Position numbers and translations under genes: made by a program. Below the pieces are notes generated by a model, which made no database searches, was not told the DNA's origin, and saw only the letters and a list, made by a program, of their open reading frames with translations. Shown piece after piece: positions 1,307 to 48,999 of a stretch of 64,000 bases of DNA. Source of the stretch: an uncultured Verrucomicrobiae bacterium (GTDB lineage Bacteria > Verrucomicrobiota > Verrucomicrobiia > Chthoniobacterales > Chthoniobacteraceae); contig CAWCSW010000020.1 in the NCBI GenBank assembly GCA_963798345.1, positions 8,855 through 72,854 of the forward strand. The letters run 5' to 3'. Within the stretch, counting starts at the first letter, position 1. Each line of letters opens with the position of its first letter.

Positions 1307-1463
1307 GCTCTTTCACGCCCGAAGTTCACCGGCCTTCCGATCGTTCAGCCATCCCCCTCCGCCTCGCAGCGCCACCCCCTTCCCCCACCCCCCAGTAAAC
1401 CTGCGCGTCACGAGCCTCGCCGATGCGATCCGATGAATCGGCCATAAGGACGAAAGCCCCGTC

Positions 1464-1847: not shown

Positions 1848-2139
1848 GGAGATCCTCTTCTTTTGTGACCACGACCGCCGAAGCTGAAAGAGATTTCATA
1901 AAACGAAAACTCCCCCGCGAGATTTGTGGGTACGGTGCTGGAACAAAAGGCTCATCGAACCGAGTTCGCGCCCCACGGATTGGCTGGTCGCGCGAATTTC
2001 TCACCCCCCATTCATTTCGGAAAAGCGAACTCACGGTGATGCGCTCACGCACCGACTTTGCTGCGATGGGAAAGTTAAAGGCGCAAGTAGGCGTGGCCTG
2101 TAGAGGGCTCCGTTCCAGCGCGCCGCATCCGGCCATCTT

Positions 2140-5293: not shown

Positions 5294-5664
5294 ACAACAA
5301 AATCGGACATCCGTTTCAACCCAGCACAGCAATCTTTCATCGCACCCCGAGTCTCCGATGACCACCACACAACTCGAATTCCCAGTCACGACGACATCGC
5401 AGCTATGGCCCGGAATCTTTGGGAAGAAGAGGGAAGGCTCAAACGCAAGGCTGAGGAGCATTGGCGGCTCGCCGATTCGCCAAGCTCAGCAGCTCGGTGA
5501 GCAGACGAAGTCCCAAGGCGCCGGCGTCGTTTGGAATTGAGATTGGCTGCCGCGTGCTGGGCGGTGGGTGAATGCGGGGTTGGAGAAAGTGATTGCGCCG
5601 CGAAATGCGGCGTTGTGGCATCCCGCGCGGCATTTAGTCTGCGACCGAAATTTCCACGCCGCCC

Positions 5665-8253: not shown

Positions 8254-8320
8254 TGCGCCCATCGGGAGAGTGGAAGACAAGACGACCGGCGCACGACCAG
8301 CGCGCGATGCGCAGTGAGAC

Positions 8321-9010
8321 ATGAACACCTTCACCCCTTCGCAGCCGATCGCGGAGAATCTCTGGCTCCTTGGCTACCCGCTGAAAATGTTGGGAGCCGA
8401 CTTGCGCCGCAACGTAACACTGATCCGGCTCCGATCGGGAAAACTCGTCATTCATTCCACAGCGCCTTTTTCGCCAGAGGACGTGGCGGCGATTCGCGCG
8501 CTGGGCGAGCCCGGCTGGTTGTTGGATGGAGTTTTACGCCACGACACCTTTGCAAAGGAAGGGCGCGAGGCGTTTCCAGAGATCCCATATCTCGCTCCAG
8601 AGGGTTTCTCGGGAGCGGTGGGATTTCCGACTTTGCCGATCGTGCCCGCCCCCGCCGAATGGGAAGGTGAACTATTCGCGCTGGAAATCCAAGGAGCGCC
8701 CGCCGCCCGCGATACGGCACTTCTCCATGTCTCTTCCCACACCCTGATCCTCACGGAGCTGATCTTCAACTTCGGTCAAGACGAGCCGCTCTGGACGGAG
8801 TTGCTCTTGCGCGTCGCGGTTGGTGGCGAACATCACCCGGGAATGTCCCGACCGTTTAAGGCCGGAGTGAAGAACGAAGAGGCGTTCAGGAGTTCGGTAG
8901 CGACCATTTTGGGCTGGGATTTCGACCGCGTGATCGTCGGTCACGGCGATGTGATCGAAAACGATGGCAAAAAAAAGCTGCGCGCGGCTTTGCAGACGGC
9001 TGGATTTTAG
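8321..9010 (+). CDS. Hypothetical protein, DUF4336-like
   Basis: 229-aa ORF with coding-like codon usage. N-terminal LWLLGYP...RMLGADLRRNVTLIRL and C-terminal VIVGHGDVI resemble DUF4336-type proteins as I recall them. This is a weak, memory-based assignment. Confidence 0.45.
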   Translation: MNTFTPSQPIAENLWLLGYPLKMLGADLRRNVTLIRLRSGKLVIHSTAPFSPEDVAAIRALGEPGWLLDGVLRHDTFAKEGREAFPEIPYLAPEGFSGAVGFPTLPIVPAPAEWEGELFALEIQGAPAARDTALLHVSSHTLILTELIFNFGQDEPLWTELLLRVAVGGEHHPGMSRPFKAGVKNEEAFRSSVATILGWDFDRVIVGHGDVIENDGKKKLRAALQTAGF

Positions 9011-9075
9011 GAAATCGCGGCGAAAGCGAACTAAAACCCATAGGACGCTCGAAACCCCACCAGCACAACCGCTCC

Positions 9076-9900
9076 GTGACAAACGTCGGGAACTTGCCAT
9101 CCTCAACCCAAGACCGTTTTCGGCCGGCGGCGTTGGGCGACAGGTGGACCAAGGTGCGCAACGCGGACCTTCATTCCGTTGAGGCGGGGCGACCGGGTCG
9201 CATTCCCTTTGTGCTAATTCCCGGTCTAGCCATGTCGGGATCCTACTTTCTGCCGCTGGCGCGTTCGCTCGCGGCCAGCGACCCGGTCCAGGTGCTGGAA
9301 TTGCCGGGGTTTGGACGCAGCACGGGGCCCCGGGGTGCTCTCGCGATGCGGGAGCACGCCGCATGGCTCGACGACTGGATGGAGGTGCGCAATATTCAAA
9401 GGTGCCATCTCGTCGGTCACTCGATGGGCTGCCAAGTGACTGCGCACCTCGCGGCAGAGCACGCGGATCGCGTGCGGACCCTCACCCTGATCGGGCCGAC
9501 GGTCGATGCGCACGCTCGTCGGAGAACCACGCAAATCCTCCGACTGTTCCGCGACTTCTCCAAGGAGAGCCTTCCCACTGTATTTCGCGCGCTGGTGGAT
9601 GTCCTCCGGGCTGGCGTCGTCCGGACTTGGCGGACGAGCACCGAAATGCTGGCCGATCCGCTCGAAGCGCAACTCGCCCGGATCACCGCACCAACGCTCC
9701 TCCTCCGCGGTGCGAACGACTCGATCGCGCCAGAGCGTTGGTTGCAAACCGCCGCCTCCTTCCTCGCAGCCGGACACTCAATGACGCTGCCAGTAGGGGC
9801 GCATTGCGTGCAATTTTCCGCCGCCGCGCAAACGGCCGCGGCCATCCTCACGTGGACTAGCCTGCACGAGGAGACGCGGTCTCATGCGCGCGAATCCTGA
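9076..9900 (+). CDS. Alpha/beta-fold hydrolase
   Basis: Nucleophile elbow GHSMG (HLVGHSMGCQV). Typical alpha/beta-hydrolase length and a C-terminal His region. Confidence 0.75.
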   Translation: MTNVGNLPSSTQDRFRPAALGDRWTKVRNADLHSVEAGRPGRIPFVLIPGLAMSGSYFLPLARSLAASDPVQVLELPGFGRSTGPRGALAMREHAAWLDDWMEVRNIQRCHLVGHSMGCQVTAHLAAEHADRVRTLTLIGPTVDAHARRRTTQILRLFRDFSKESLPTVFRALVDVLRAGVVRTWRTSTEMLADPLEAQLARITAPTLLLRGANDSIAPERWLQTAASFLAAGHSMTLPVGAHCVQFSAAAQTAAAILTWTSLHEETRSHARES

Positions 9901-10517
9901 TTTCCAGAATGGCACCCGAACGCCGTATCGCGATCCTATAAATACGAATTCGCAAACGCCGAAACCGAACCACGAGCACGAAGTAGATCCGGACCAAACC
10001 CCAGCCTCAGGAGACGAAATGCACACGGACGTAAGCGTTTGAACTCAACGCGCAGACCAAGGACCTCGCGGAACGGGACGAACCGACCGGTGCGTCGGGG
10101 ACCGCTGCACCGAAGGTCTTGCCGGAGGACGAGGTCTCCCTTACCGAGAGGTTCGTTCTATGAGGGCACAGACGCGGCAGATTGCGGCCGCGGATCCGGA
10201 CGGTGAACCGTGTAAAGCGGGCGACTGCGCCCACACCGCACCGCTATTACATCTGTGGCTGGCATTGCAGCCCACGGACTGCCGGACCGTTTCCGCAAAG
10301 TTTCCTGGTCCAGCCCGGGCGGCATCAGTGATACGAATGACAAATCTCTTCATGCCAACATCATTCGCAGCATGTTGGCCGCATGCCGGGCGTCCATTCA
10401 CAACGCGTCGCGATTTACACCCCCACAAGTTTCGGCCCGCCAACCCGGTTCTATTAGTCGGATCACCATAAGCAAAAGGCCGCCGCCGGAATAACCGGCG
10501 GCGGCATGCTTGTCCGC

Positions 10518-10634
10518 GGACGATAGGCTAGTGGCCACGGATTAGATAGATGACGAGCAAAATCGGGAGAGGGATGCCAAGAACCCACAACAATGCGTAG
10601 CCAATCTTTCCTGATTCACTGATGAACTTGTCGA
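10518..10634 (-). CDS. Small hydrophobic protein (38 aa), candidate
   Basis: ATG at 10634 (minus strand) to TAG at 10520-10518. Encodes MKHIDKFISESGKIGYALLWVLGIPLPILLVIYLIRGH, one predicted TM helix. Not in the ORF track because it is under 60 aa. Divergent from the response-regulator gene. Confidence 0.3.
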
Positions 10635-10855
10635 TGTGTTTCATAACGTAATCTGAATCGCTCCGACCTCATTTTCGGACGTGCGCTTTAAACAAAAAGA
10701 GAAGCCCCCCTGCTCGAACCCGAGAAGGCATGCCGAGTTTTCCATTACTTCGGGTGCCACAATCCCTACCGCCAGAGATAGCCCCTTTTGCGATTAACAA
10801 CACAACACCCCTAATTCGCCGGGCGGTCACGTCCGGAACGGCGGTGATTATCACC

Positions 10856-11500
10856 ATGTCTAACTCCCCGCTCTCTGAAAACCGAACGCGCATCTTGATC
10901 GCCGAAGATCACGCCAAAACGCGCGAGGCCCTGCGCTCCTTGCTGGAGATTAAAGCTTTTGACGTAACCTCCGTCGCCACCGGCAATGAAGCGCGCGAAG
11001 TTCTCACATCGTTCGACACACCCTGCATTGCTCTTGTCGATTGGGAAATGCCGGGTGCTTCCGGCTTGGATGTCTGCCGGGCCGTCCGTGCTCATAAGTC
11101 CGATCGCTACGTTTACCTTATCGTCATCACGGCACGTGATGGCGAAGAAAGCATTAACCAGGCAATGGCCGCTGGTGCCGACGATTTCATTCCGAAGCCA
11201 TGCGGAGTGTCCGAGCTTCTCGCCCGGGTACGGAACGGCGAGCGGACCGTCGCCTTGCAACGCAATCTCGCGATTCGCATTGCTGAATTGGAGGAAAGCG
11301 CTGAGCGCATGCGTCAACTGAAGCGTCTCCTGCCAATCTGCATGTATTGCAAAAAAATCCGCGATGACTTGGACTACTGGGAGGAGATTGAGGTCTATAT
11401 CCGGGAACACACAGGAACGAATTTTTCCCACGGAATCTGCCCGAGTTGCATGGCGAACGAGATTGGCGAACTGAGCGCTAAGAGGTTACCGGGCACTTAG
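10856..11500 (+). CDS. Response regulator: REC domain plus C-terminal Cys/His-rich (zinc-ribbon-like) domain
   Basis: REC motifs RILIAEDHAK...ALVDWEMPGASGLD...KP. C-terminal LPICMYCKKIRDDLDYWEEIEVYIREHTGTNFSHGICPSCMANE, a four-Cys motif. Start chosen at the internal ATG at 10856. The 3' end overlaps the convergent kinase gene by 15 nt. Confidence 0.75.
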   Translation: MSNSPLSENRTRILIAEDHAKTREALRSLLEIKAFDVTSVATGNEAREVLTSFDTPCIALVDWEMPGASGLDVCRAVRAHKSDRYVYLIVITARDGEESINQAMAAGADDFIPKPCGVSELLARVRNGERTVALQRNLAIRIAELEESAERMRQLKRLLPICMYCKKIRDDLDYWEEIEVYIREHTGTNFSHGICPSCMANEIGELSAKRLPGT

Positions 11501-13267
11501 CCGGTCGATCGTCTCCTTTAGTCGATCAGCGGCGACTGGCTTGACGATATGAGCGTTGAATCCGGCGTCCTTTGTTTGTTCCAAGTCGGACTCCATGCCG
11601 TAACCGGACATGGCAATCGCGGGGATATCGCGGTCCCGCCGGAGCTTGCCCAGCAAGTCCATCCCCGTGCCATCAGGCAGGCCCACATCGCTGAGCAACA
11701 GTTCCGGGTCGAAAGCCGGTGCATACTCGATCGCCTGGGTCATCGTTGCGGCATGCTTCACGACATGGCCCCAGCGGCTGAGTAAACGTTCGAGCGCGTT
11801 GCGGGTATCTTCATGGTCTTCGACGAGGAGGATACGGAGCGTGCGCACCGTGGGCGTGACGGGCAGTGACATGCCCGAAACCTTCGGCGCCGCCGGCGGT
11901 ATAATCGTCGCCAGTTCGATGGTGAATGTCGCCCCGTGATCCTTGCCGGCGCTGAACGCCGTGATGCGGCCGCTGTGCGCTTCGACCAGCCCTTTCGCAA
12001 TGCTCAGGCCCAGACCAACACCACCGAAGCGTCGCATTGTGGAATCTTCGCCCTGCTGAAACGGCTCGAAGATACGGGAGAGCATCTCGGGGTCAATGCC
12101 GATACCGGTGTCCGTGACGTCGATGCGCACCGTTTCCGGCGTGGGATTCACGGTGCGAACGGTGATGCTTCGTTCATTCGGAGTGAATTTCACGGCGTTA
12201 AGGATGAGGTTCCAAAAAATTTGTGCGAGCCGCGCACCATCGCCCTTCACATGACGCTCGGTCGCATCAAGGTGTAAGGCGATTTCCGAGCGCTTCTGAT
12301 TCGCCGCGGAACGGCACATATCTGCGGCGTGCCGAATTGTTTCATGAAGGTCGATGGTGGAAAGATGCACCTCCAGCTTGCCTTTGCTGATTCTGGTGAT
12401 GTCGAGCAGATCATCGACGAGCCGCGCTTCGAGTTCAATGTTTCGGCGAATCAGCGAAAGCGACTCGCGTAGCTCTTGGGGATCGATCTCTGTCGCGTTT
12501 TCCAGATTGCTGGCGGCTGCTAAAGCGGGCGTGAGGGGCGTGCGCAGTTCATGACTGAGCACGGCGAGAAACTGATCCTTTGCGCGATTGGCGGCCTCCG
12601 CGGCCTGCTTCGCGCGCTCCAGCTCACGGGCGTGGACGGTGACTTCCTTGGCCATGTGCGCGAGGTCGTGAGTCCTCTCACCATTGGCAGCTGTGTGGGC
12701 GCCGAGGGCCGCGGCTGTGAAATACGCTGAGGGAGCAGCGTCCGTCGCCTTTTTATAGAGTTCCGCCAGTACAGCGTAGGCTTTCTCCAGTTCGGACTTC
12801 CGTTCCGCGGCAAGGCGTGCCGACTGCAACACCGAGCGGATTTTCGGCACCAGCGGGGGGAGCAAAAGCGCGGTAACCAGCGAGGCCGTTGCCGTAAGCA
12901 ATTTCACCCAGCCGGAGAGCCAGTAGCGAGGATGCGGCGACTGCAGCGTCCAGACTTCCATGAAGTGCGTGGCCCCGCAGGCCACAATGAAGAGCGCGAA
13001 AGCCAGCATCATCCAATGGAACGGCAGCTCCTGCCGCGCTCGGAAGACGAGATAGATCAGCGTCGTCGAGATTGCGACGTAGGAGAATCCGATGACGAGA
13101 TCCGACCAACCATGCAGCCTCATCAGGTCGCGGTTGAACAGGTAGCAATGCGCGTGCGGCATGAACATGTCCGTCCCGGAATCATGAAAGGCGGCCGCAA
13201 CGATGGCCCCTAACGCGAGGGCCACGGCGACCAGGGCTATGACAGACCGAACGCGCGCTTGGTTCAT
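11486..13267 (-). CDS. Hybrid histidine kinase with N-terminal ethylene-binding-domain (ETR1-like) membrane sensor
   Basis: N-terminal TM region TLIYLVFRARQELPFHWMMLAFALFIVACGATHFMEVWTL aligns with Arabidopsis ETR1 [39 protein letters not shown]. That includes the Cu(I)-ligating Cys65/His69 motif (CGATH) and the upstream D and Y positions (WSDLVIGFSYVAIS vs ISDFFIAIAYFSIP). Followed by HisKA (AKDQFLAVLSHELRTPLTPAL), HATPase and a C-terminal REC. Confidence 0.85.
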   Translation of the reverse strand: MNQARVRSVIALVAVALALGAIVAAAFHDSGTDMFMPHAHCYLFNRDLMRLHGWSDLVIGFSYVAISTTLIYLVFRARQELPFHWMMLAFALFIVACGATHFMEVWTLQSPHPRYWLSGWVKLLTATASLVTALLLPPLVPKIRSVLQSARLAAERKSELEKAYAVLAELYKKATDAAPSAYFTAAALGAHTAANGERTHDLAHMAKEVTVHARELERAKQAAEAANRAKDQFLAVLSHELRTPLTPALAAASNLENATEIDPQELRESLSLIRRNIELEARLVDDLLDITRISKGKLEVHLSTIDLHETIRHAADMCRSAANQKRSEIALHLDATERHVKGDGARLAQIFWNLILNAVKFTPNERSITVRTVNPTPETVRIDVTDTGIGIDPEMLSRIFEPFQQGEDSTMRRFGGVGLGLSIAKGLVEAHSGRITAFSAGKDHGATFTIELATIIPPAAPKVSGMSLPVTPTVRTLRILLVEDHEDTRNALERLLSRWGHVVKHAATMTQAIEYAPAFDPELLLSDVGLPDGTGMDLLGKLRRDRDIPAIAMSGYGMESDLEQTKDAGFNAHIVKPVAADRLKETIDRLSAR

Positions 13268-16998: not shown

Positions 16999-17906
16999 AT
17001 GCTCAACGAACTCTGGTATCGAAATTCCATCATTTACAGCCTTGATGTCGAAACCTTCATGGATGCCAATCACGATGGGATCGGCGACTTCGAAGGCCTG
17101 AGCCTCTCGCCCAGGCTCTCAAGGCAACACGTGAGGTGCCGCCAGGTGCGCAATGGTGCCACTTTCTCCGTAACCACGATGAGCTCGATCTCGGACGTCT
17201 GACCGAGAAACAGCGGGAGAAGGTCTTTGCGCGCTTCGGCCCGGAGAAGGATATGCAGCTTTACGATCGCGGCATTCGCCGCCGCCTCGCACCGATGCTG
17301 GGCAATCGCCCCCAGCTGGAACTCGCGAACAGCCTCGCCCTTTCGCTACCGGGCACGCCGGTGCTGCGCTACGGCGATGAGATTGGCATGGGCGATGATC
17401 TTGACCTCTCGGAGCGCAATTCCGTCCGCACGCCTATGCAGTGGAGCAACGAAATTAACGGCGGTTTTTCCACCGCGAAGAAAACGGTTCGCCCGGTGAT
17501 CGAGAAGGGCAGCTATGGATTTTCACGGGTGAACGTGGAAGCGCAGCGGCGGGAGCCGGATTCGTTCCTGACCTGGACGGCGGCGATGATCCGCCTGCGC
17601 AAGGAATGTCCCGAGATCGGAATGGGCGCCTGGAAAATGGTGGAGACGAAGTCGAAGTCGATCCTCGCTTTGCAATACGAGTGGAGGGGCAGTTCCGTGG
17701 TGATCATGCACAATTTCGCTTCGTCTCCGCAAACGGTCCACATCCGGCCGGAAGGAGGTCGCGAGCACGGCCTCGTGGATCTGATTGAGCGCCAGGAGAG
17801 CGCGGCTGACGGCAGGGGCGAACACGAAGTTGCGCTCGACGCGCCCGGCTACCGCTGGTTCCGCGTCGGGCCGCTAACGCAAAAGCTCGGCCGCAAGCGG
17901 GCGTGA
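16999..17906 (+). pseudogene. treS: Trehalose synthase / GH13 alpha-amylase-family gene remnant with a roughly 300-codon internal deletion
   Basis: N-terminal 35 aa MLNELWYRNSIIYSLDVETFMDANHDGIGDFEGL (GH13/TreS N-terminus) join, in a different frame, to a TreS-like C-terminal half (WCHFLRNHDELDLG...LSLPGTPVLRYGDEIGMGDDLDLSERNSVRTPMQWS...). The catalytic core is missing. The junction lies at a 6-bp inverted repeat at 17100..17118. Confidence 0.65.
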
Positions 17907-20348: not shown

Positions 20349-22376
20349 TTACGGCGCTGTCCTCACCCAGCAACGCAGAACTTCAGCGACGCTCCAAGCC
20401 TGTGCAATGCAGGCGCGTGGCGTGAACGGAGATTCCGCGTCGAATACTTCGCTGATTGAACCGACGCAACCGTGGTCGAGATGTTCGGTAAGGCCGCCGA
20501 GGAAATGCCGCGCGCCTTGGTGATCTTCCGGATGGACCTTAAGCCAGGCATCAACGAAGGGACCGATGAGCCAACCCCAAACCGTCCCTTGATGGTAGGC
20601 AGCGTCCCGGGCCCGCAAGTCTCCGAAGTAGCGCGACTTGAAGTCGGGATGCCCCGGCGAGAGGGTGCGCAGACCGACCGGGGTGAGCAGTTCGGTCCGG
20701 ACTTTCGTCACCACCGCCGACCAATGCGCCTCCTCAAGCACCGGATGACGCAGCGAGATGGCAAAGATTTGATTGGGACGGCACGCGGAATCGTCGCCCT
20801 GTTCGCCATCGACGACGTCGAATAAGTATCCGTGTTTCTCGGACCAGAAGCGGCGATTGAAAGATTCCCTACACTGGAGGGCATGCTCCGTATAAGTCTT
20901 CGCGGCATCGCCTTCGAGCCACCCAGAGAGGAGGCGGAGCGCATTGTAATAGAGCGCATTGACCTCGACGGCCTTTCCTCGACGCGGTGTCACGACCCAG
21001 CCATCCACCTTCGCGTCCATCCAGGTGAGTTGATAACCTACTTCACCTTGTTGCAAAAGTCCGTCCGTGGGATCGACTCGAATGCCGAAGCGCGTGCCGC
21101 GCATATGGTGTTCGATGATCTCCACGAGCTTCGGCAGAAGCGCGTCAAGCGTGGCACGGTCGCCGGTTATTTCGACATATCGATCGAGCGCGTGGAAGAA
21201 CCAAAGTGTCGCATCTGCGGTATGGTACAGCCCCTCGGACTTGCCTTCGGGGAACAGATTCGGAATTAATCCATCGCGAATGTAGTGACCGAAAGTGCGC
21301 AGAATCCACGCGGCTTCCGCGTGGCGGCCCGTGGTGAGGGTCAAGCCCTCGAGGCTAATCATTGTGTCGCGGCCCCAATCAGTAAACCAATGATAGCCGG
21401 CGATGACCGTCCGCACTTCGTCGCCGGCGGCTCGGGCTCTCGCCGCATCCTCGATCCGGCCCGCCGGCGCGATAATGAACTGGTCAGCGGCCAGGACGAG
21501 TTCCGCGCCGAGTTCCGTCTGCGCTTCCGGGGCAGCTGCGCGAATGAGGCGCTCCCGCCGCGCCAGGTCCGCGCGCTGCGCTTCGTCGGGATCGAGGGCG
21601 AGGATCTTCGACCACTCTTCAGTGGAAGCGATGAGAGTGACCGCACGCTCGGGGCGGAGTTCGACGGTAAAAAAACCCGGACTCCACAAGAGTCCGCGCG
21701 ATGAATAGCCGCGGTCGGCTTCAGTCTGATAGGTGATTTCGCTGATCCGACCACCTTCGTGGATGAAATGCGCGCGCTCGTCATGGACGCACAGGCGAAG
21801 CGGGTGAGGATACTGTTGAGTGAATACCTCATATTGACGCTCGCGGATGAGCAACGAGTAGGTTTCCGAAAGCGGTCCGCCAACATCGTTTTCGTGCGGG
21901 CGGAAATTGACGGAGGGTCTCAATGCGAGTTGGGCGTAATCGGCACCCGAGAGCAACCGATACGCGATGTGTACCGTGTTTTGCCCGTGCACCAGCAGCA
22001 ACGATTTTTCGATCACGCATCCATCCGCTTCGTAGGTCCAGACCGGCAGGCCGTTCTCGAGACGAAACTCCTTCACGTAATGACTCTCCGCCGCGTCATC
22101 CGCCGCCTCCAGCGGTTCATCGCCACCGAGAAGGAAACTGCGACCGTTCGCCCCGCGCAGATGTTCCGAGAGATGATTGAGCATGACCATGCGCCCGAAC
22201 GGCGCAGGGAGCGCCGCCACCAACAGACCATGATAGCGGCGCGAGACGGCCCCGCAAATTGTACCCGATCCATAACCACCGAGCCCGTTGGTGATAAGCC
22301 ATTCGCGCCGCAGTATTTCCCGCGCATGATGGGCTTGGGCATCGGCAATGTCGATGCGCCGGATGAGCTTGTTCAT
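20349..22376 (-). CDS. Glycogen debranching enzyme (GDE N-terminal domain plus amylo-alpha-1,6-glucosidase C-terminal domain)
   Basis: 675 aa. N-terminal ITNGLGGYGSGTICGAVSRRYHGLLVAALP matches the bacterial/archaeal GDE family. The start overlaps the TreZ stop by 4 nt, so the two form an operon. Confidence 0.8.
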   Translation of the reverse strand: MNKLIRRIDIADAQAHHAREILRREWLITNGLGGYGSGTICGAVSRRYHGLLVAALPAPFGRMVMLNHLSEHLRGANGRSFLLGGDEPLEAADDAAESHYVKEFRLENGLPVWTYEADGCVIEKSLLLVHGQNTVHIAYRLLSGADYAQLALRPSVNFRPHENDVGGPLSETYSLLIRERQYEVFTQQYPHPLRLCVHDERAHFIHEGGRISEITYQTEADRGYSSRGLLWSPGFFTVELRPERAVTLIASTEEWSKILALDPDEAQRADLARRERLIRAAAPEAQTELGAELVLAADQFIIAPAGRIEDAARARAAGDEVRTVIAGYHWFTDWGRDTMISLEGLTLTTGRHAEAAWILRTFGHYIRDGLIPNLFPEGKSEGLYHTADATLWFFHALDRYVEITGDRATLDALLPKLVEIIEHHMRGTRFGIRVDPTDGLLQQGEVGYQLTWMDAKVDGWVVTPRRGKAVEVNALYYNALRLLSGWLEGDAAKTYTEHALQCRESFNRRFWSEKHGYLFDVVDGEQGDDSACRPNQIFAISLRHPVLEEAHWSAVVTKVRTELLTPVGLRTLSPGHPDFKSRYFGDLRARDAAYHQGTVWGWLIGPFVDAWLKVHPEDHQGARHFLGGLTEHLDHGCVGSISEVFDAESPFTPRACIAQAWSVAEVLRCWVRTAP

Positions 22377-24328
22377 CGGTCCAACGGTTTGGGCACGAGC
22401 AACAGTCCAGACTCAGCAGGCAAGTGCCAGTTTTCCTCGGAATCGACCGGCGGAGTGCCACCGCCACCGTAACGCGGATCCTCACTCGACCACGCCACTT
22501 GCCACTGGCAACCGAGTGGCGGCGCGAGCAGCGGCTCCGGCGCAGGATCGAGATGCAGATGCGGACCGAGGTTGATGACCAGCAGGCGGTCATCCTGCGC
22601 ACGTCCGAAAAACCGGAGCACCAAAGCGGTATCACCAAGCACGGCACCGTCGTAGGAGCCGCGGGGAGATTTCCCCAAGAGTGGATCAACTTTGCGCACC
22701 TGTAACAAATCGCAATGGAGATGCCAGATTTCGGCGTGCCGCTCACGATCCGTGAAGTCGAGTTTGGAGCGGTGGAAAGTGTCCTCGGAATCCGGGTTCG
22801 GCAACAGCATTTCGGTGTCTTCCGAGGCGATGCTTGCGAACTGTTTCAGAAACTCCCTCCGGCCGCGACCCACCGCTTTCGCAAGGTCGGGATGATGATC
22901 CGCGAAGTAAAGGAAAGGTGAGGTGGCCGCGAATTCCTGGCCCTGAAATAGCATCGGCGTATTCGGTCCGAGAAGGAGCAGTGTGGTCAGAGCGCGGAGT
23001 CGACCCGGACTGGTAATCGTGTGGATGCGGCGGCCCGCGAGCGAGTTCGCGATCTGGTCATGGTTTTGCAGGAAGTTCACGAAGTTCGCCGGAACGAGAT
23101 CGAAGCCCGGCGAGCCGCGCCGGGCCTTCTGCCATTTGTAACGCTGGCCCTGGTAGAGGAATCCCCACTTCGCCGCCGAGATGAACTCCTGCGGCGAGCC
23201 GTGGTAGTCAGTATAGTACGCTTCGTTACGCCCCGTCATGGCGACGATGGCGGCGTGATGGAAATCATCGTTCCACAATGCATCGAGGCCGATCCCCCCA
23301 TCCTCAGGCGAACGCACAAGATGTGGGTGCTGCGGCTCATTCTCCCCGACAAGATAAGCCGACCGCCCACCGGCCGCTTCGCGCACCTTCCGCGCGATAG
23401 CGGCCAGCAGATGATCCGGAGACGCATCGAAGATTTGCTGGGTGGCATCGAGCCGCAAACCATCGAGATGAAACTCGTCGATCCAGTAACCCGCGTTGGC
23501 GATGATCAGTTCGCGCACCGGACCGCTGTGTTCGCGGTCAAAGTTCAGCGCTTCGCCCCACTCATTCTCGTACCTCGCACTAAAATAATGCGGCGAAAAC
23601 TCCTTCGCGAAATTCCCATCCGGTCCGAGGTGATTATAGACCACGTCGAGGACGACGCCGAGTCCGAGCGCGTGCGCCGAATCCACAAATCTTCGGAAAT
23701 CATCCGGCTCCCCATAGAGCCGTGTCGGCGCAAAAAGATTCACGCCGTCATAGCCCCACCCGAAACGTCCGACGAAATCCGCGACGGGCATCACTTCGAG
23801 CAAGGTTACGCCGAGTTCAGCGAGTCGGCGCAACTCAGTCGTCGCGGCCGCCCAGGTGCCTTCGCGGGTGAAAGTTCCGACGTGCATTTCATAAATCACC
23901 TGACCGGCGCGCGTGACACCGCGCCATTCCGCATCCGACCAAGTAAAAGCACCCGGGTCGACGATCTGAGAGGGCCCGTGCGGGCCCGCTGGCTGAAAGC
24001 GAGAGGCCATATCCGGAAAGGCGCCGCTGTCGAGCTGATACCGATACGTCATCCCGGCGCGAGCGTCCTCGCTCCAGCCCACCCAATAGCCCTCGCCATC
24101 CGGAGCGAGCGACTTCTCCTCCGCGCCATCCCCTTCTTCGAGAACCACGGCAACGCGCTTCGAAACCGGCGCCCAGACACGGAAATGCACGCCGCCATCG
24201 GACTGCACTTCAGCGCCGACGGGCAATCGGCGGGTGGCGGGCGGGCGCGCAGAGCAATGCGGCGGTTTCATCGAACTGACATCGCGCACAGAAACTTCCA
24301 CGGATGCCGTCATTTCTGGCTGGCCCAT
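22373..24328 (-). CDS. treZ: Malto-oligosyltrehalose trehalohydrolase (TreZ, GH13)
   Basis: N-terminal VHFRVWAP...YRYQLDSGAFPD...QIVDPGAFTWSDAEW and GH13 catalytic regions (GLGVVLDVVYNH, GLRLDA). Length 651 aa. Confidence 0.85.
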   Translation of the reverse strand: MGQPEMTASVEVSVRDVSSMKPPHCSARPPATRRLPVGAEVQSDGGVHFRVWAPVSKRVAVVLEEGDGAEEKSLAPDGEGYWVGWSEDARAGMTYRYQLDSGAFPDMASRFQPAGPHGPSQIVDPGAFTWSDAEWRGVTRAGQVIYEMHVGTFTREGTWAAATTELRRLAELGVTLLEVMPVADFVGRFGWGYDGVNLFAPTRLYGEPDDFRRFVDSAHALGLGVVLDVVYNHLGPDGNFAKEFSPHYFSARYENEWGEALNFDREHSGPVRELIIANAGYWIDEFHLDGLRLDATQQIFDASPDHLLAAIARKVREAAGGRSAYLVGENEPQHPHLVRSPEDGGIGLDALWNDDFHHAAIVAMTGRNEAYYTDYHGSPQEFISAAKWGFLYQGQRYKWQKARRGSPGFDLVPANFVNFLQNHDQIANSLAGRRIHTITSPGRLRALTTLLLLGPNTPMLFQGQEFAATSPFLYFADHHPDLAKAVGRGRREFLKQFASIASEDTEMLLPNPDSEDTFHRSKLDFTDRERHAEIWHLHCDLLQVRKVDPLLGKSPRGSYDGAVLGDTALVLRFFGRAQDDRLLVINLGPHLHLDPAPEPLLAPPLGCQWQVAWSSEDPRYGGGGTPPVDSEENWHLPAESGLLLVPKPLDR

Positions 24329-29154: not shown

Positions 29155-30045
29155 ATGCCCCGAAAAACGCCCTTGCGCACTGACGTCCATTCGCTCGGTA
29201 GAGCCCGCACGGGCGTCAGCGGTCTCGGCGAAATTACGGGCGGCGGGTTACCAGCTGGCAGGCCCACCCTCGTTTCCGCCCGTGCGGGTACGGGCAAAAG
29301 GACGTTTGTCGTCGAGTTCCTCGATGCGCGGTGCGATGGATTTTGGCGAGCGAGTTGTTATTATAACGTTCGAGGGAAACGCCGAAGAGTTGACGGCCAA
29401 CCTCCGCTCGCTCGGGTTCGATCTCGCCCAGCTCACGGCGCTGAAGAGAATCGTCATAGATTGGGTTCATACCAATAGCAGCGAATTCGAGGAGCCTGGC
29501 GAACTTGATCTGGAAGGGCTCTTCATCCGGCCGGGCAACGTGATTGACTTGATTGGGGCGAAGTGCGTCGTCCTCGATACTGTGGAAGCGCTTTTCGCGG
29601 GGCCGCCCAACGAGAGTGTCCTGCGCGTGGAGTTGCGCCGGCTTTTCCGCTGGTTGAAGGATCGCGGGATTCCCGCGGTGATCACCGGTGAGAAAGGCGA
29701 CGGGACGCTTAGCCGCCATGGACTGGAGGAATATGTAGCCGATTGCTTGATCTCCCTGGACCACCACATGACCGCGCAAATTTCCACGCGCAGACTGCGC
29801 GTCATCAAGTATCTCGATTTCGCCCATGGGACGAACGAATACCCTTTCCTCATCGGATAACGCGGCATCTCGGACCTGCCGATCACCGCATTGCGGCTCG
29901 ACCACACGGCTCCGAGCGAACGCGTGTCCGCGGGCATCGCGGGGCTCGACAAAATGCTCGGCGGGCGCGGTGTTTTCCGCGGCGCGAACGTGCTCGTGTC
30001 GGGATCGCCAGACACAATCGTTCACTTAGTCCAAGCGCCGCCTAT
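29155..30045 (+). pseudogene. Second KaiC-like gene, degraded (two frameshifts, CII P-loop destroyed, 3' truncated)
   Basis: CI Walker A GVSGLGEITGGGLPAGRPTLVSARAGTGKRTFVVEFL (frame 1). CI continues in a second frame (FGERVVIITFEGNAEEL...DRGIPAVITGEKGDG...LRVIKYLDFAHG). The CI-CII linker and CII start lie in a third frame (ISDLPITALRLDHTAPSERVSAGIAGLDKMLGGRGVFRGANVLVSGSPD), where the P-loop GxPGTGKT is lost. No further homology follows. Confidence 0.65.
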
Positions 30046-30218
30046 TACTGACCAACGCGCAGGATTGAATCACCACCCGCTGCGGAGTCACCTACTGCCA
30101 AATACTGCCATTATCCCAGTTTTTGAGCGCTTTTGGGGGTTGAAAACGGACGTCAAAGGCGGTAACTTACCCTGTCGCAATGAAAAACACCCGAGACACC
30201 TCGGGGTTTGTAATCAGC

Positions 30219-30250
30219 AGGTCGTCGGTTCGAATCCGTCTGCCGGCTCC
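30219..30250 (+). other. tRNA 3'-half-like remnant (variable loop, T-arm, acceptor 3' strand), no foldable 5' half
   Basis: AGGTCGTCGGTTCGAATCCGTCTGCCGGCTCC closely parallels the E. coli tRNA-fMet 3' end (AGGTCGTCGGTTCAAATCCGGCCCCCGCA) and has the canonical GGTTCGAATCC T-loop. I could not pair a 5' acceptor strand or an anticodon arm upstream. It lies 175 nt downstream of the KaiC-like pseudogene. Confidence 0.4.
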
Positions 30251-30433
30251 CCCCATATCGAAGGAATTGCGATTCGGAAAGCTTCCGAAACAAACCCGCG
30301 GATAATCTTTGTTCGCCTGTTGCTTGCCACTTCTGCGGCCCGGGAGCCCCAGTCTCCACCGCATGGCCCCGAGTTTAAAACCGCCCCCAAAATCGCCTTG
30401 GACTTGGGGGAGTGGATGGGGTTGTATTCTTCA

Positions 30434-31573
30434 ATGAAAAAACTCTTCCTCCTGGGGGTTGCCGGTCTGCTGGCAGTTTCTGCGCGCGCGGCAAATCTTC
30501 CCGGTGGTACGTTCATGAAGTTTGAGCAGGAGTGCAAGGCGTCCTTCGACGAACCGTGGCGTACGATTCCCTGGAAGATTTCGCTGCTGGAAGCGCAGAA
30601 GGTCGCGGCCCTGGAGAAGAAACCGATTTTCATCTGGGCCATGGATGGCCATCCCCTGGGCTGCACCTGAAACAACGGAGTGCTCGACCGTGCGTCGACC
30701 TTTTCCGATCCGGAGATCATTGCCTCCCTCAAGACCGACTTTATCCCCGTCGCCATAGACCAAGCCTACCAACGGCGGCAAAAAGACGCGGAAGGAGAGT
30801 TTTATCGCAAGATTGCGGGCCAGGGACCGCGCCGTAATTTCGACGACACAACCCAGGGATTGTATGTGGCCGGACCGGACGGCGCCTTGCTCGGGTTCAC
30901 CAACAATCGCGGGTCGGAAAGGGTTATGGAGTTGTTGAAGAAGGGGTTGGAGAAATACCAACCATCGGAGGTGGCTTCCATCAACCCTGGCAAGCTGGAC
31001 GCCCGCTACAACCCTCAACCTCCGGAAGGGGGGCTCGTGATTCGCGTTCAGGCCAAAGTCATGGGGGGTTACAAAAAGGCGGACGACAAATGGGAAGCGA
31101 TCTTTCAGACGTCGGTCTCACGCGACAACCTCTGGATCACCGAAGAAGAACATGAGGCTCTGGTGAAAGGGTCATTTCCCAAGACCCTCCAGGAACGAAT
31201 CGCGCGGTTTCATCTCGTGGACAATACCCGCGGTGAGCCACCGATGTGGAGCCAAGACGAGATCAGCCATCTGAACATCGACGTAAAGAATGGACTCATC
31301 GAAGGGACGGCCGGTCTGCGGACGAAGTCGAATGATCGAGGCTACGATGCGCGCCTGAGAGGGAACATAGACGTGAAGGAGGGTAAGTTGTCGCGGTTCG
31401 AGATGATCTCGGAGGGGGAATTCTGGGGGCACGGCCCGTACACGCAAAACCCGCCATCGGGAAAGTTTCCCCTCGCCATTTCCTTTACCCTGGCGGATGG
31501 GACGGACGTCGCGGACGCCATTCCGCCGCAGGCTTCGAGGGGCTGGGTGCAGGGTTATCTGAAGCCTGATTGA
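30434..31573 (+). CDS. Secreted thioredoxin-fold (Thioredoxin_7/DUF255-like) protein with in-frame TGA at 30668-30670. Candidate selenoprotein; otherwise a nonsense pseudogene
   Basis: Signal peptide MKKLFLLGVAGLLAVSARA. The Trx-fold beta1 KPIFIWAMDGHPLGCT is followed immediately by TGA. The same frame continues NNGVLDRASTFSDPEIIASLKTDFIPVAIDQ...GLYVAGPDGALLGF, which matches the post-CxxC part of DUF255-type domains ([31 protein letters not shown]). The TGA therefore sits at the redox-motif position. An imperfect hairpin begins 9-14 nt downstream (GGAGUGCUCGACCGUGCGUCGACCUUUUCC). Confidence 0.5.
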
Positions 31574-34447: not shown

Positions 34448-37400
34448 TTAGCCATCCATCCACGGCCGGAGCCGGGTCTTGATATCTTCGGTCATGCTAA
34501 TGCGCAGGTGGGCGTCCGGGACAAGACGGAGTTGGGAGCCGTCTTCGCCGCGGAACACGAACTCCACCTGACGATTCCCGGGATTCGTAATCATCGCTTC
34601 GTGGACGACGGCCAAATCGGATTCGGTGGTCTTCTGGCGGTCGAAGTTCAGCACCACCGGCTTTTCCACGACCGGCTTCTTCAGCGGCTTGACTTCGGTG
34701 GCGGCGATGCGCACTCCCTCCCCTCGCAAGTCGAGACGACCGGTCACCGAAACGACGCCTCCCAGAACCAGATGCTGCTGCGCCTTGAGATATGTCTCGC
34801 TCCACACCATGATCTCGAGCTGATCGGTGAGATCCTCGACGACGATGACGGCAAAAGGCTTCGACTCCTTTTTGGTGAATTTCTTGTCGATTTGGATCAG
34901 GGCTCCGGCGATGGAAACCGTGCTCTTATCTTCCTGCTCCGCCAATCGCATAATAGGAATGAACCGATCGCTCTCGAGGGCCGGGCGGTATTCGTCCAAA
35001 GGATGTCCCGTGACATAAAAGCCAAGCAATTCCTTCTCGAAAGCCAGCTTCTCATTCTGCGGCCAGGGCGGGATCGCCGCGGTGCCACGGACAGTTGGTG
35101 CGGCCGCCGTCTCGAAAACATCGAACATCGAAATCTGGCCGGCGGCACGGTCGCGATGTGCGCTCGAGGCGGCGGCGATGGCGCCATCAATGGCAGCGAA
35201 CAATTGCGCGCGTTCGACGCCGGCAAAATCAAAGGCGCCGCATTTCACGAGACATTCGATCGCCTTTTTACTGATCTTCCGCGAATCGACGCGGGAGCAG
35301 AAGTTCTCGAGTGACTCGAACGGCCCATCTTTTGTGCGTTCTTCCAATGCGGCCACCATCGCGGATTCACCGACGTTTTTGATTGCGGCCAGCCCGAAAC
35401 GGATCGCACCCAAACGCGGCTTCTCCGGTGGTGCCTCGGCGCTGCCATTTTCTGGTGTTCGTTTCGCCGTTTTCGCTTTCCGGCGCCCTTTTACTGGTTT
35501 TTCGTCGGACAGCTCCGCGAAGCGAACACCGGCCGGTTCATGGTCGTCAACAGTGGCAATTGGCGATGCGTCCGCCGCTGCGGCGGGATCCACTCGTTTC
35601 CGGGCCACCTTCAACGCCTCGACCCCTTCGTTGTTGATTTCGGCCGGTTCGAACTTCAGACCCGCGAGATTGAGATCCGGCGGGAGAATCCGAATTCCCA
35701 ACCGTTCGCACTCGGCCACAAACACGCTGATTTTGTCCGTGTTCGAGACTTCGTTACTCATGACCGCAGCCATAAACTCGACCGGATAGTTAGCCTTGAG
35801 ATATGCCGTTTGATAACTAATCCAGGCGTAGGCGGCGGAGTGTGAACGGTTAAAACCATAGCCGGCAAATTTCTCGAGAGTGTCGAATACCTGATCGGCG
35901 GTTTCCGCCTTGATCCCGTGCAATTTCGCGCACCCTTCCCGAAATTTTACGCGCTCCTTGGCCATCTTTTCCTTGTCCTTCTTGCCCATCGCGCGGCGAA
36001 GCAAATCAGCGCCACCGAGCGTGTAGCCGGCCATCACCTGCGCGGCCTGCATCACCTGTTCCTGATAGATGAGCACGCCGTAAGTTTCCCTGGTCACGCC
36101 ATCGAGCAACTTGTGCGGGGCCTTGACCTTGGCCAGACCCTTCTTCCGCTTCACATAATCAGGGATGAGATCCATGGGGCCCGGACGATAGAGCGCGAGG
36201 ATGCGCGTTGATGTCCTCGATGTCGCTGACATCGAATTGCCGGCACACATTCACCATCCCACCGGATTCGACCTGGAAAACCGCAATGGTTTCACCCCGA
36301 TTATAGATGTCGAAGGTCGGCTGGTCATCAAGCGGGATCCGATCGATATCAAAGTCCGGCGTGTGTTTATGAATGAGCGCCACGGCATCGGTGATGACCG
36401 TGAGTGTCTTGAGCCCGAGAAAATCGCACTTCAACATACCCACTTCGGTCAGCGGACCCATGGCGTATTGGCTGACGATCGAGCCGTCATTGGCGCGGGT
36501 CAGTGGAATGTAATCCGACAGGTCGCGGTCGCCGATGACCACGCCGGCCGCATGCACGCCGACGCCGCGTGTCAACCCTTCGAGCTTGGACGCGGTTTCC
36601 CAAAGCTGAGCCGTGGCCGGTTCGTTCTCGACGGCTTGCTTCAACTCCGGGTTCTTGTCGATGGCTCCGGGGATATGCTCGATGGTGCCGGTTTCCTTGT
36701 TGGTTTTGTCCAGGCCGGTGAGCGTAATACCCAGCTCGTTCGGGATCATTTTCGCCACCCGATCCGCATCTCCATAACTCCACCCCATCACGCGCGCGAC
36801 ATCACGGATAACGGATTTCGCGCCGAGCGTGCCAAACGTGATGATCTGCGACACCGCGCGCTCGCCGTATTTTTGCCGCACGTAATCGATGACTTCGCCA
36901 CGGCGATTGACGCAAAAATCAACATCGATATCCGGCGGTGAGACGCGCTCGGGATTGAGGAAGCGTTCGAACAGAAGCTTGAACTTTAACGGATCGATAT
37001 CAGTGATCCCCATGGCATAGGCGACCATCGATCCGGCGGCCGAACCGCGCCCGGGACCAACTGGAATACCCTGCCTTCGCGCCCAATCTATGAAGTCCCA
37101 GACGATGAGAAAGTAATTCGTAAATCCCTGCTTCTCGAGCACGCCGATCTCGAATTCGAATCGCTTTTGCACGTCCTCCGAATCCGCCGCGGCGCCATAC
37201 CGTTTGTGCAGCCCCTCGGCAACAATCTCGCGCAAATACTGATTCTGGGTCTTTCCCTTGGGCGGCGTGTAAAGCGGATACTTGGGGGTGGTATCGAGTT
37301 GGAATCCGCAGCGCTCGGCGATGGTCAGCGTGTTATCACAGGCCTCGGGGAATTCACGGAACAACTCGCGCATTTCCGCCGGTGATTTGAAATAGACTTC

Positions 37401-38132
37401 CGGCACATAATGCAGCCGGCGCTCGTCGGTGACATTTGCGCCCGTCCCGATACAAATCATCGCGTCGTGCGCGCCGTGATCTTCACGATTGAGGAAATGG
37501 ACATCGTTGGCCGCGACCAGCTCGAGACCGAGATCCCGGGCCAGGCGCGGCAACACGGCATTGGTTTTCCGCTGCTGTTCGAGGCCGTGATCGTGCATCT
37601 CGAGAAAGAAATTCTCCGGCCCGAGCATATCCCGATACATGGCCGCGATGCCGCGCGCTTTGGCATAATCATCGTCCTGATGCAGGGCCATGGCGACCTC
37701 ACCCTTGAGACACCCGCTGAGGGCGATCAAACCTTTCGCATACTTCGCGAGATGCTCATGATCAATGCGCGGCTTGTAATACATGCCATCGAGCTGGCCG
37801 ATGGAAACCAGCTTCACGAGGTTTCGATAGCCTTCCGCATTTTCGGCCAGCAGCGTGAAGTGAAACGACGCGTCGCGCTGACTGAGCCCTTTCTTTTCAT
37901 GGAGCGAGCCTGGCGCCATATACACCTCGCAACCAATGATCGGTTTGATGCCGGCTTTCTCACCTTCCTGATAGAACTGGATCGCGCCGAACATGTTGCC
38001 GTGATCCGTGATGGCGACCGCCGGCATTCCGTAGTCCCCTGCTTTCTTCATGAGCGCCGGAATCCGCACCGCACCGTCGAGGGTGCTGTATTCGGTATGC
38101 AAATGGAGGTGAACGAACGAGTCGGCGGACAT
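34448..38132 (-). CDS. dnaE: DNA polymerase III alpha subunit (DnaE), split into two ORFs by an apparent 1-nt insertion near 36204
   Basis: N-terminal ORF 36159..38132: PHP domain MSADSFVHLHLHTEYSTLDGA..., ...GLKTLTVI..., ending IEDINAHPRALSS. C-terminal ORF 34448..36250 resumes ...RILALYRPGPMDLIPDY... Removing one C from gcgCatcctc restores IEDINAILALYRPGPM, which parallels E. coli EDMIALVALFRPGP. Confidence 0.85.
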
Positions 38133-47054: not shown

Positions 47055-47370
47055 AGAATCTTCGGAGCTGCTGCCAGCATCCTGATCCTCGGGGCTGACC
47101 ATCGATGGAGCGCCGCTCGGAGATGCCCCTGCTTGAGCGTTGAACGTTGGACGTTCTCACTGACCCGAACAACGTGGGGATGCGTACGGAAAATCAAGCG
47201 CCTCGAACATTTGCCCAAAGATTTCCTTTGCAAAGTCAATCGAGTGGTGTCTCGTCCCCGCCCCGCGCAAGCAAATCCATAATCGTCCCCGTTGGTCCTC
47301 GGGCGGTCTTCAACTGAAGATTCGCCGATTGCGCCGAGGGAAACCCGGGCGACTCAAACACCCAATACCT

Positions 47371-48399
47371 ATGCCTGTTCGCCTCGGCCGTTTTGAAATG
47401 CCGAAAGGTCTCGCCAAAGATGAGACCTCCCGCACCGACACCTACGCCAAGTTCATCGCTGAGCCCTTTGATGCCGGCTACGGCCACACCGTCGGAAATT
47501 CCCTCCGCCGCGTGCTCCTCAGCTCGATCGAGGGTGCCGCCATCACCACCGTCCGCATCGAGGGTGCCCATCACGAATTCCAAACCCTTCCCCATGTGGT
47601 CGAGGACGTGACCGACATCATTCTGAACCTGAAGAAGGTGAAGTTTACCGCCGTCGATCACGAGCAGCGCGCACCCTGACGCATCAGCGTCAACAAGGAA
47701 GGCGACGTGACCGCCGCCGACATCGAAGAGCAGCAGGGCATCGAAGTCGTCAACAAGAAGCAGCACATCTGCACGCTCGACAAGAAGACCAAATTTGAAG
47801 CCGAGCTCGACCGTGCGGCTCGGTCGCGGATTCGCCACCGGCGACGAAAACAAATTTGCGGACATGCCGATCGGCGTGATTCCGATCGACTCGATCTTCT
47901 CGCCCGTTACCCGCGTCAAATATGACGTCGGCAATACCCGCGTCGGCCAGCGGACCGACTACGACAAGCTGGAACTCGAAGTCTGGACCGATGGCCGCAT
48001 CACGCCCGGAGGACGCCGCTGGTGCAGGCCTCGTCGATTTTGAAGAAGCACTTCGAGCCGTTCTATGCACTACGACGAGAATGCGGTGCAGTTCGACGAG
48101 ACGCCGCAGGCGCAGAACCAGGAAAATCAGAAGCTCAAGAAGCTGCTCAACATGAGCGTCAACGAGATCGAGCTTTCCGTGCGCGCGGCCAACTGCCTCA
48201 ACAACGCGAACATCACGACCGTGGGCCAGCTGGCGCATGAAGATCGGAAGCCGAGATGCTCAAGTATCGCAACTTCGGCAAGAAATCGCTCAACGAAATC
48301 AAAGACAAACTGCAACAGCTCGGCCTGGGTCTGGGAGCGAAGTTCGAGGCCGGCCTGGTGGAACCCAATCTGACCGAGACCAGCCTGACGGGTGTCTAA
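47371..48399 (+). pseudogene. rpoA: DNA-directed RNA polymerase alpha subunit (rpoA) reading through at least 5 frame changes
   Basis: rpoA-homologous segments lie in successive frames: 47371-47679 ([33 protein letters not shown]), about 47680-47820 ([35 protein letters not shown]), 47820-48010 ([12 protein letters not shown]...[17 protein letters not shown]...[20 protein letters not shown]), about 48010-48060 ([12 protein letters not shown]), 48065-48245 (alpha-[31 protein letters not shown]), and 48241-48399 ([20 protein letters not shown]). Confidence 0.7.
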
Positions 48400-48435: not shown

Positions 48436-48999
48436 ATGCGTCATAGACGACACAATATTAAACTCGGCCGCAGTCAGGCTCATCGCAACGCCCTGCTGTC
48501 GAATCTCGCCGTCAGTTTGATCTGGCACGATCGCATCAAAACCACGGTGGCCAAGGCCAAGGCCGTTCGCCCCTACGTCGAGAAACTGGTGACCAAAGCC
48601 AAGAAAGACACGCTCCATGCGCGCCGCCTGGTGCTGGCGGAACTGCGCCACAATGTGCGCGCCATGAAGCTGCTTTTCAGCAAAGTCGCTCCGCGTTGCG
48701 CCAATCGGCAGGGAGGCTACACCCGTATTCTCAAGCTCGGACCGCGTCCTGGTGATGCCGCACCGATGGCCTTACTGGAATGGGTCGATTTCGCCCCTGA
48801 GGAAGTAACCGCGACTCCGGAAAAATCTGCGGCGGGCAAGAAACCAGCGGTGAAGAAAACGGCCTCGAAGAAGACGACGGCAAAAGCTTCCTCCGAAGAA
48901 GCCAGCGAAGCTGAATCCGAGCCAGCAAAAAAGAAGGCGGCTCCCAAAAAGCCAAAGGCGAAAAAAGCTGCGGCGTCCGAAGAGGGCGAAGAGAAGTAG
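48436..48999 (+). CDS. rplQ: 50S ribosomal protein L17 with Lys/Ala-rich C-terminal extension
   Basis: MRHRRHNIKLGRSQAHRNALLSNLAVSLIWHDRIKTTVAKAKAVRPYVEKLVTKAK...GGYTRILKLGPRPGD. Intact. Standard rpoA-rplQ order. Confidence 0.9.
   Translation: MRHRRHNIKLGRSQAHRNALLSNLAVSLIWHDRIKTTVAKAKAVRPYVEKLVTKAKKDTLHARRLVLAELRHNVRAMKLLFSKVAPRCANRQGGYTRILKLGPRPGDAAPMALLEWVDFAPEEVTATPEKSAAGKKPAVKKTASKKTTAKASSEEASEAESEPAKKKAAPKKPKAKKAAASEEGEEK

Follow-up and report, generated by a model that had tools for sequence, protein, structure and literature searches.

The window analysed here, a stretch of 64,000 nucleotides from a contig of an uncultured Verrucomicrobiae bacterium, carries on its forward strand a single frame of 380 codons (30434..31573) whose sole internal stop is a TGA at 30668–30670 (Table 1). 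Translation of this frame bears out the description given in the initial annotation, two ORFs in the same frame parted by a TGA and three codons: the TGA is followed by AAC AAC GGA and then by a GTG at 30680, which is the start of a 297-aa ORF. Around the stop the translation reads KPIFIWAMDGHPLGCT, the TGA, and then NNGVLDRASTF, the residues after the stop being NNGVLDRASTFSDPEII. A GGAG overlaps the GTG at 30680 without a spacer, in agreement with the earlier remark that it sits too close to the GTG to act as a usable SD sequence. The upstream ORF had also been assigned a start at 30410, which we correct, as the codon there is GAG and no start codon; in-frame ATGs are found at 30416 and 30434, and a start at 30434 agrees with a 78-aa homologue (P0371). 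Both halves of the frame are spanned by homologues, namely a full-length Cys form (P0158) and a read-through protein called by JGI (P0015). The surroundings of the gene showed no noteworthy promoter or terminator consensus.

Table 1. Coordinates of the candidate selenoprotein gene, its parts, and other features named in the text. Positions are those of the window, except for the last line, which refers to related loci.
Feature	Coordinates	Strand	Comment
Complete candidate selenoprotein CDS	30434..31573	+	379 residues including Sec at residue 79; own stop TGA 31571-31573
Predicted Sec-type signal peptide	30434..30490	+	MKKLFLLGVAGLLAVSARA/A; A-R-A/A cleavage motif, judged by eye from the sequence
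Thioredoxin-fold domain	30506..30958	+	Thioredoxin_7/DsbH/AGR-like by structure
Cys codon TGC, two residues before Sec	30662..30664	+	Candidate resolving residue
In-frame TGA, inferred Sec	30668..30670	+	Conserved TGA; TGT in Cys form; aligns with first Cys of CxxC
SECIS-like stem-loop	30676..30707	+	Fold, covariation, frozen synonymous sites
C-terminal beta-rich domain	30953..31570	+	Conserved motifs SRDNLW, RFHLVDNTRGEPPMW, PPQxSRGW
rpoA pieces	47329-47679, 47795-48043, 48065-48373	+	
Pyr_redox-SelD fusion gene	L013:4922-6880(-), L132:10577-12775(-), L082:69-731(+), L133:6074-6469(-)		

In terms of domain architecture, the predicted protein comprises a signal peptide, a thioredoxin-fold domain, and a β-rich C-terminal domain, and all homologous loci encode a hydrophobic N-terminus. 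The match to the Pfam family Thioredox_DsbH (PF03190, DUF255) is sub-threshold (E = 0.18, 12.2 bits versus a cutoff of 27), and weak thioredoxin matches (PF03190 or PF13899) are seen in just 1–2 of 61 family members. The resemblance of the downstream half to DUF255/Thioredoxin_7 domains that had been proposed from the sequence is real, but at E = 0.18 it is weak. When the read-through protein was given a Cys for the Sec and scanned against NCBIfam release 20, zero families were returned at E ≤ 1, and the selenoprotein models of that collection (e.g. NF041199, NF041374, NF045500, and NF047660) gave no match. Matches to TRIM5 and AccD1 in a profile search of PDB sequences were judged spurious.

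Structure models were obtained for the natural Cys form P0158 (AF2), with the C-terminal domain of the window protein modelled separately. The N-terminal domain adopts a thioredoxin fold with the active site at the N-terminus of helix α1; the confidence of the AF2 model is lower around the active-site loop (pLDDT 60–76). A profile alignment made with hhalign to the sequence of 3ira, a solved DUF255 domain (E = 5.9e-5, probability 65%), pairs G-C-T-U-N-N-G with -S-T-C-H-W-C, placing Sec on the first, N-terminal nucleophilic Cys, Gly at the position of the second (resolving) Cys, and the conserved upstream Cys opposite a Ser. The active-site motif is C-T-U-N-N-G, with no CxxC. Because of this placement of Sec and Gly, the motif is to be written C-x-U-x-x-G and not CxxU, which overturns the initial reading of the TGA as the second redox residue. 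The Cys two residues before Sec is present in 22 of 22 main-family sequences and is not conserved in distant sub-families; the sequence QKDAEGEF that follows strand β2 is invariant, the distant sub-families included. A solved structural relative of the C-terminal domain was looked for, and none was found. In short, the Sec of the N-terminal thioredoxin-fold domain stands where CxxC proteins have their nucleophilic Cys.

The quality of the assembly bears on the weight that one in-frame TGA can carry. Upstream of rplQ (48436–48999), rpoA is broken over 47329–48373 (+) by a TGA at 47677–47679 and by at least two frameshifts; such fragmentation of an essential gene suggests that the contig contains sequencing or assembly errors. 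The gene for the DNA polymerase III alpha subunit, dnaE (34448–38132, −), falls into two overlapping ORFs in different frames (36159–38132 and 34448–36250), probably owing to a further frameshift error. When the window was scanned for other genes split by a TGA, only the broken rpoA was coding-like. Since the assembly is error-prone at rpoA and dnaE, a lone TGA in this window would mean little; that chance would hardly place a nonsense mutation at this very site, as argued initially, is weak reasoning for the window by itself. The case is decided by conservation across genomes, described below.

Several further features of the window were observed. At positions 5–13267, genes for hybrid histidine kinases and response regulators are densely clustered about a full-length homologue of KaiC (2140–3657); among them is a kinase with an ethylene-receptor-like N-terminal domain (11486–13267, −). 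A second, truncated copy of KaiC is found at 29282–29860. Between this fragment and the selenoprotein gene, a GC-rich hairpin, CCCGAGacacCTCGGG, lies within 30189–30255 (+) and is followed by a sequence resembling a tRNA T-arm and 3′ acceptor, GGTCGTCGGTTCGAATCCGTCTGCCGGCTCC. The tRNA-like stretch (30218–30255) is a 3′ fragment only; ARAGORN and Rfam found no tRNA at 30189–30255, and the stretch may be the remnant of an integration site. The ORF at 17136–17906 (+) covers only the C-terminal part of the alpha-amylase family (profile positions 318–442 of 446) and adjoins glycogen-debranching and amylase genes (20349–24328, −); it is likely a truncated or frameshifted gene.

In each of 26 related loci from genomes and metagenomes (25 genome loci and L026), a TGA aligns with that of the window, and the amino acids on both sides of it are strongly conserved across the window and these loci. 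The 25 genome loci come from Gemmatales, Pirellulaceae, Isosphaeraceae, Phycisphaerales, Verrucomicrobiales, Poribacteria, and Fimbriimonadales, so that TGA-bearing loci are present in the phyla Planctomycetota, Verrucomicrobiota, and Poribacteria as well as in Fimbriimonadales. A Chthoniobacteraceae contig that is 87% identical to the window carries the TGA and is annotated as two ORFs (P0371 and P0002). The distant sub-families (L021–L025; ~25% identity) keep the TGA while the motifs flanking it are changed, with the residues TGC, CQT, GIT, or GVT standing directly before the stop. In metagenome contigs, a DNA pattern that permitted TGA, TGC, or TGT at this codon recovered TGA in 120 of 120 among the matches listed (at least 120).

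Protein databases reflect the same arrangement. With the read-through product as the query, at least 1690 relatives were recovered (clusters at 90% identity); in the best 120 of these 1690, all but two proteins are 295–300 aa long and comprise only the part after the TGA. The two exceptions are P0015 (406 aa), which is the read-through call, and P0120 (281 aa), which starts further downstream. P0015 is the one long match that shows W at the Sec column, and the codon in its DNA is TGA. The 78-aa N-terminal query recovered at least 800 relatives (clusters at 90% identity), and the 120 listed are all short fragments of 67–129 aa. An exhaustive HMMER search gave 676 cluster representatives, nearly all of which stop at the final residue of the query. 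Among 269 N-terminal sequences, 214 match the motif and terminate directly after Cys-x, 53 fail the strict motif (most of them still end in PLGC followed by T, V, or G), and 2 run on with Cys. The Val codon at the putative restart is GTC, GTT, or GTA in 6 of 22 sequences, and the GTG start is thus not conserved. A match of 2491 aa with 8 matched stretches (P0201) was rejected as an animal Ig-repeat protein that matches WSLDGHPL by chance.

The hairpin downstream of the TGA starts 13 nt past it, within the interval of 9–14 nt at which an imperfect hairpin had been noted initially. Its core upper stem pairs 30684–30688 with 30694–30698 and is closed by the apical loop CGUGC (30689–30693); an optional lower stem (30676–30680 with 30703–30707) is conserved only in part (55–90% paired). 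The published rules for bSECIS elements specify an apical loop of 3–9 nt, a G in the first two loop positions, a distance of 16–37 nt from the UGA, an upper stem of 4–16 bp, and an MFE ≤ −7.5 kcal/mol (PMC13188914). The window hairpin agrees with these rules, having a loop of 5 nt with G at loop position 2 followed by U, a UGA-to-loop distance of 18 nt, and an upper stem of 5–7 bp; the 48-nt element that includes the lower stem folds at −11.2 kcal/mol. The core stem by itself (5 bp) reaches only −5.0 kcal/mol, and a 60-nt stretch is no more stable than shuffled sequence (z = −0.83).

Conservation of the hairpin was assessed in two sets of sequences. The five core pairs are formed in 23 of 23 genome sequences, with compensatory changes at four of the five. 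For a 7-pair helix in these 23 sequences, 85% of the cells are paired versus 21–42% when the partner strand is slid, 17 cells are changed on both sides, and 0 of 500 shuffles reach the observed covariation score. An independent set of 56 diverse metagenome sequences gives 87.8% paired cells (30–46% when slid) and 90 cells with double-sided changes, and again 0 of 500 shuffles reach the score. The compensating changes are mostly synonymous, as in CTC/TCG to CTT/TCA or CTG/TCC. Synonymous freedom is suppressed only within the hairpin: one codon prevails for Asp+6 (GAC, 20 of 21 sequences), Arg+7 (CGT, 22 of 22), and Ala+8 (GCG, 13 of 14), whereas five different codons serve for Arg+35. Selection acts on the hairpin at the RNA level. 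In L023–L025 the hairpin is altered to GCUCGG-GGUU-CCGAGC and lies 13 nt from the UGA (e.g. L023:2926–2985), outside the usual 16–37 nt.

The question of whether homologues carry Cys or Sec at the aligned column, raised in the initial annotation, is answered by TGA throughout the loci and by TGT in the full-length Cys form P0158 (locus L029). In this locus the Arg codon is CGG, and the stretch that matches the hairpin does not fold at all; P0158 is a natural control in which the codon is TGT and the hairpin is absent. The second Cys homologue is a fragment (P0232), and Cys forms are rare (2 of ~269 N-terminal sequences); a further fragment, P0168, has Gly at the Sec column. Such a scarcity of Cys homologues is unusual for selenoprotein families.

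In terms of selenium machinery, selA, selB, selD, and tRNA-Sec were looked for within the 64-kb window by tRNA and Rfam scans and by Pfam searches of 40 window ORFs, and none was found; the Rfam scan of the window matched no family. The related loci, which amount to 889 kb, hold no selA, selB, or tRNA-Sec, and selD is present in them only as fusions; a weak SelB-like match in L069 was rejected as TypA/BipA. A gene for a Pyr_redox-SelD fusion lies ~1 kb downstream of the selenoprotein gene, in convergent orientation, in all four members of one sub-clade (L013, which is a Rubripirellula MAG, L082, L132, and L133; 60–80% identity). The fusion gene scores 239–257 bits against the selD model TIGR00476 (cutoff 125), and TIGR03169 (Nterm_to_SelD) is over its cutoff in the complete ORF of L132 and under it in the truncated ORF of L013. 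selD serves selenouridine synthesis as well. NADH-dehydrogenase-like-SelD fusions have been described as SelD-Cys proteins that occur in genomes with selenoproteins and Sec machinery (Mariotti et al. 2015, PMC4561486), and several Planctomycetes, Gemmata and Isosphaera among them, are known to carry selA, selB, selC, and selD (Kim et al. 2016, PMC4807772). The selD linkage and the Sec machinery of Planctomycetes are supportive and are no proof for the genome of the window.

Apart from the selD-linked sub-clade, no conserved gene neighbourhood was found across 26 loci. In this sub-clade a membrane gene resembling CDP-alcohol phosphatidyltransferases lies between the selenoprotein gene and the fusion gene, and the selenoprotein has an additional Cys (DQACQRRQKD). 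Genes with FGE-sulfatase domains are located near the selenoprotein gene in two long-read contigs (L027:7518–9827 and L028:15464–16642); their proximity is probably a coincidence, as these domains are common in Planctomycetes.

Three other explanations of the in-frame TGA were weighed. One is that a recent nonsense mutation or a base-calling error has truncated the gene here, which would fit an error-prone assembly: rpoA is interrupted by an in-frame TGA and by two or more frameshifts, dnaE is split, and KaiC and amylase genes occur as fragments. This explanation is already refuted by cross-genome conservation, since all 26 loci and all 120 metagenome matches listed have the TGA, the 87%-identical Chthoniobacteraceae contig included, and by the purifying selection that persists on both halves; its probability is negligible. 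The preference of the initial annotation for a candidate selenoprotein over a nonsense pseudogene thus stands on the conserved TGA, the covarying hairpin, the TGT homologue, and the unconserved restart codon. A second alternative assumes two genes: one encodes a secreted peptide of ~78 aa that ends at the TGA, and the other a 297-aa protein whose translation, perhaps through translational coupling, starts from the GTG at 30680. PGAP, IMG, and ENA annotate the region in this way everywhere, and the window does have a GTG at this position. A clear two-gene arrangement in relatives, the counter-case named at the outset, is found in their annotation, but the restart GTG is lost in 6 of 22 sequences, where GTC, GTT, or GTA, none of them a start codon, takes its place. 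A split here would also sever the thioredoxin fold between strand β1 and helix α1 and leave the downstream product without a signal peptide, and both the full-length Cys form P0158 and the overlap of GGAG with the GTG, which leaves no spacer, argue against it. We regard two genes as very improbable.

A third possibility is that the UGA is recoded to a residue other than Sec, either through hairpin-stimulated read-through by a suppressor or near-cognate tRNA for Trp, Cys, Arg, or Gly or through a genetic code in which TGA is a sense codon. The 64-kb window without selA, selB, selD, or tRNA-Sec is consistent with such recoding, as are the W with which JGI translated P0015 and the Gly of the P0168 fragment. 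Against it, TGA ends 14 of 29 checked ORFs (28 with Pfam domains and this gene, itself included), and a TGA-sense code is excluded because TGA terminates about half of the checked window ORFs. Moreover, the column is that of the catalytic Cys, and the only full-length relative with a sense codon for a redox residue has Cys there; the hairpin fits a bSECIS of the SelB type, with GU in a small apical loop and a spacing of 18 nt; and selD is linked to the gene in one sub-clade. Recoding to a residue other than Sec therefore appears improbable.

From the sequence evidence, we consider it highly probable that 30434..31573 forms one gene, that its product is a selenoprotein secreted or located in the periplasm, and that the UGA at 30668–30670 is decoded as Sec by the standard bacterial route. 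In this selenoprotein reading, SelB carrying Sec-tRNA(Sec) would bind the hairpin in the coding sequence, whose CGUGC loop lies 18 nt past the UGA. The motif and fold suggest that the product would act as a periplasmic one-Sec oxidoreductase, in which the selenolate would attack an oxidised substrate such as a disulfide, sulfenate, or peroxide. Because the usual resolving Cys is replaced by Gly, Cys-77, two residues upstream of Sec, may resolve the intermediate as an intramolecular selenenylsulfide, and the C-terminal β domain may supply the site for a substrate or partner and with it specificity. The recoding mechanism is canonical; it adds to a known kind of system and changes no concept.

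The family is large, apparently uncatalogued, and probably new, with members in Planctomycetes and Verrucomicrobia. We lean towards the notion that it is an undescribed, widespread, near-obligately Sec-containing family of PVC bacteria and their neighbours with a C-x-U-x-x-G thioredoxin fold, which, in the more adventurous version of this notion, would serve in periplasmic handling of selenium or reactive sulfur. The linkage to Pyr_redox-SelD in one Pirellulaceae-like clade is what points to such a role and away from generic disulfide exchange. As gene callers stop at the UGA, public databases list two unrelated hypothetical proteins of ~80 aa and ~295 aa. If the selenoprotein reading holds, thousands of database entries are wrongly split: the C-terminal clusters (at least 1690 at 90% identity) and the N-terminal ones (at least 800) would be halves of one selenoprotein, and the selenoproteomes of Planctomycetes and Verrucomicrobia would therefore be under-counted. 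The compact and well-covarying SECIS, with its stem of 5–7 bp and CGUGC loop, would offer a model for SelB recognition beyond Proteobacteria and Firmicutes, and a thioredoxin-fold active site with a nucleophilic Sec, a Cys at position −2, and Gly at the resolving position would represent unexplored chemistry.

The closest thioredoxin-fold domains are those of the Thioredoxin_7/Thioredox_DsbH (DUF255) and DsbD-gamma/AGR type (PDB 3f9u, 3ph9, 2ju5, 3ira, and 1vrs). Compared with these domains, the window protein lacks CxxC, having Sec for the first Cys and Gly for the second, and it possesses an additional Cys at position −2, a pre-active-site loop that is longer by five residues, the sequence QKDAEGEF after β2, and a fused, unrelated β domain of 200 aa. 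In GPx and 1-Cys Prx enzymes, one nucleophilic residue, Sec or Cys, sits at the start of helix α1 of a thioredoxin fold and has no CxxC partner, and the window protein is reminiscent of them in its lone Sec at that site. There is, however, no sequence or Pfam similarity to GPx or Prx in the window protein, and its Cys at −2 is not known to have a GPx counterpart.

A catalogue of 119 prokaryotic selenoprotein families (2026) includes, among those with a thioredoxin fold, Trx7/PDZ with CxxU, the Trx-like Sec.1 with CxU within PF13192, GOS_C with UxxC, and others (PMC13188914). In Table 1 of that work no family fits the architecture or motif found here, and Planctomycetes and Verrucomicrobia are unmentioned in the review; the GOS, deep-Sep, and BSepDB papers likewise contain no matching family. 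One "hypothetical" candidate in Planctomycete P1 (S9 Table, PMC4807772) could conceivably belong to the window family. According to the deep-Sep paper, SECIS-independent methods rely on abundant Cys homologues; that Cys forms are nearly missing here would account for the family having escaped notice, and the family exposes a blind spot in discovery methods that depend on such homologues. Like the catalogued thioredoxin-fold selenoproteins (PMC13188914), the window protein has one active-site Sec and a bSECIS in its coding region, and it shares the C-x-U spacing with Sec.1. Unlike them, it has no PF13192 match and no PDZ domain and combines a signal peptide and a thioredoxin fold with a novel C-terminal domain, in a family that is almost exclusively Sec-containing and comes from bacteria of the PVC group.
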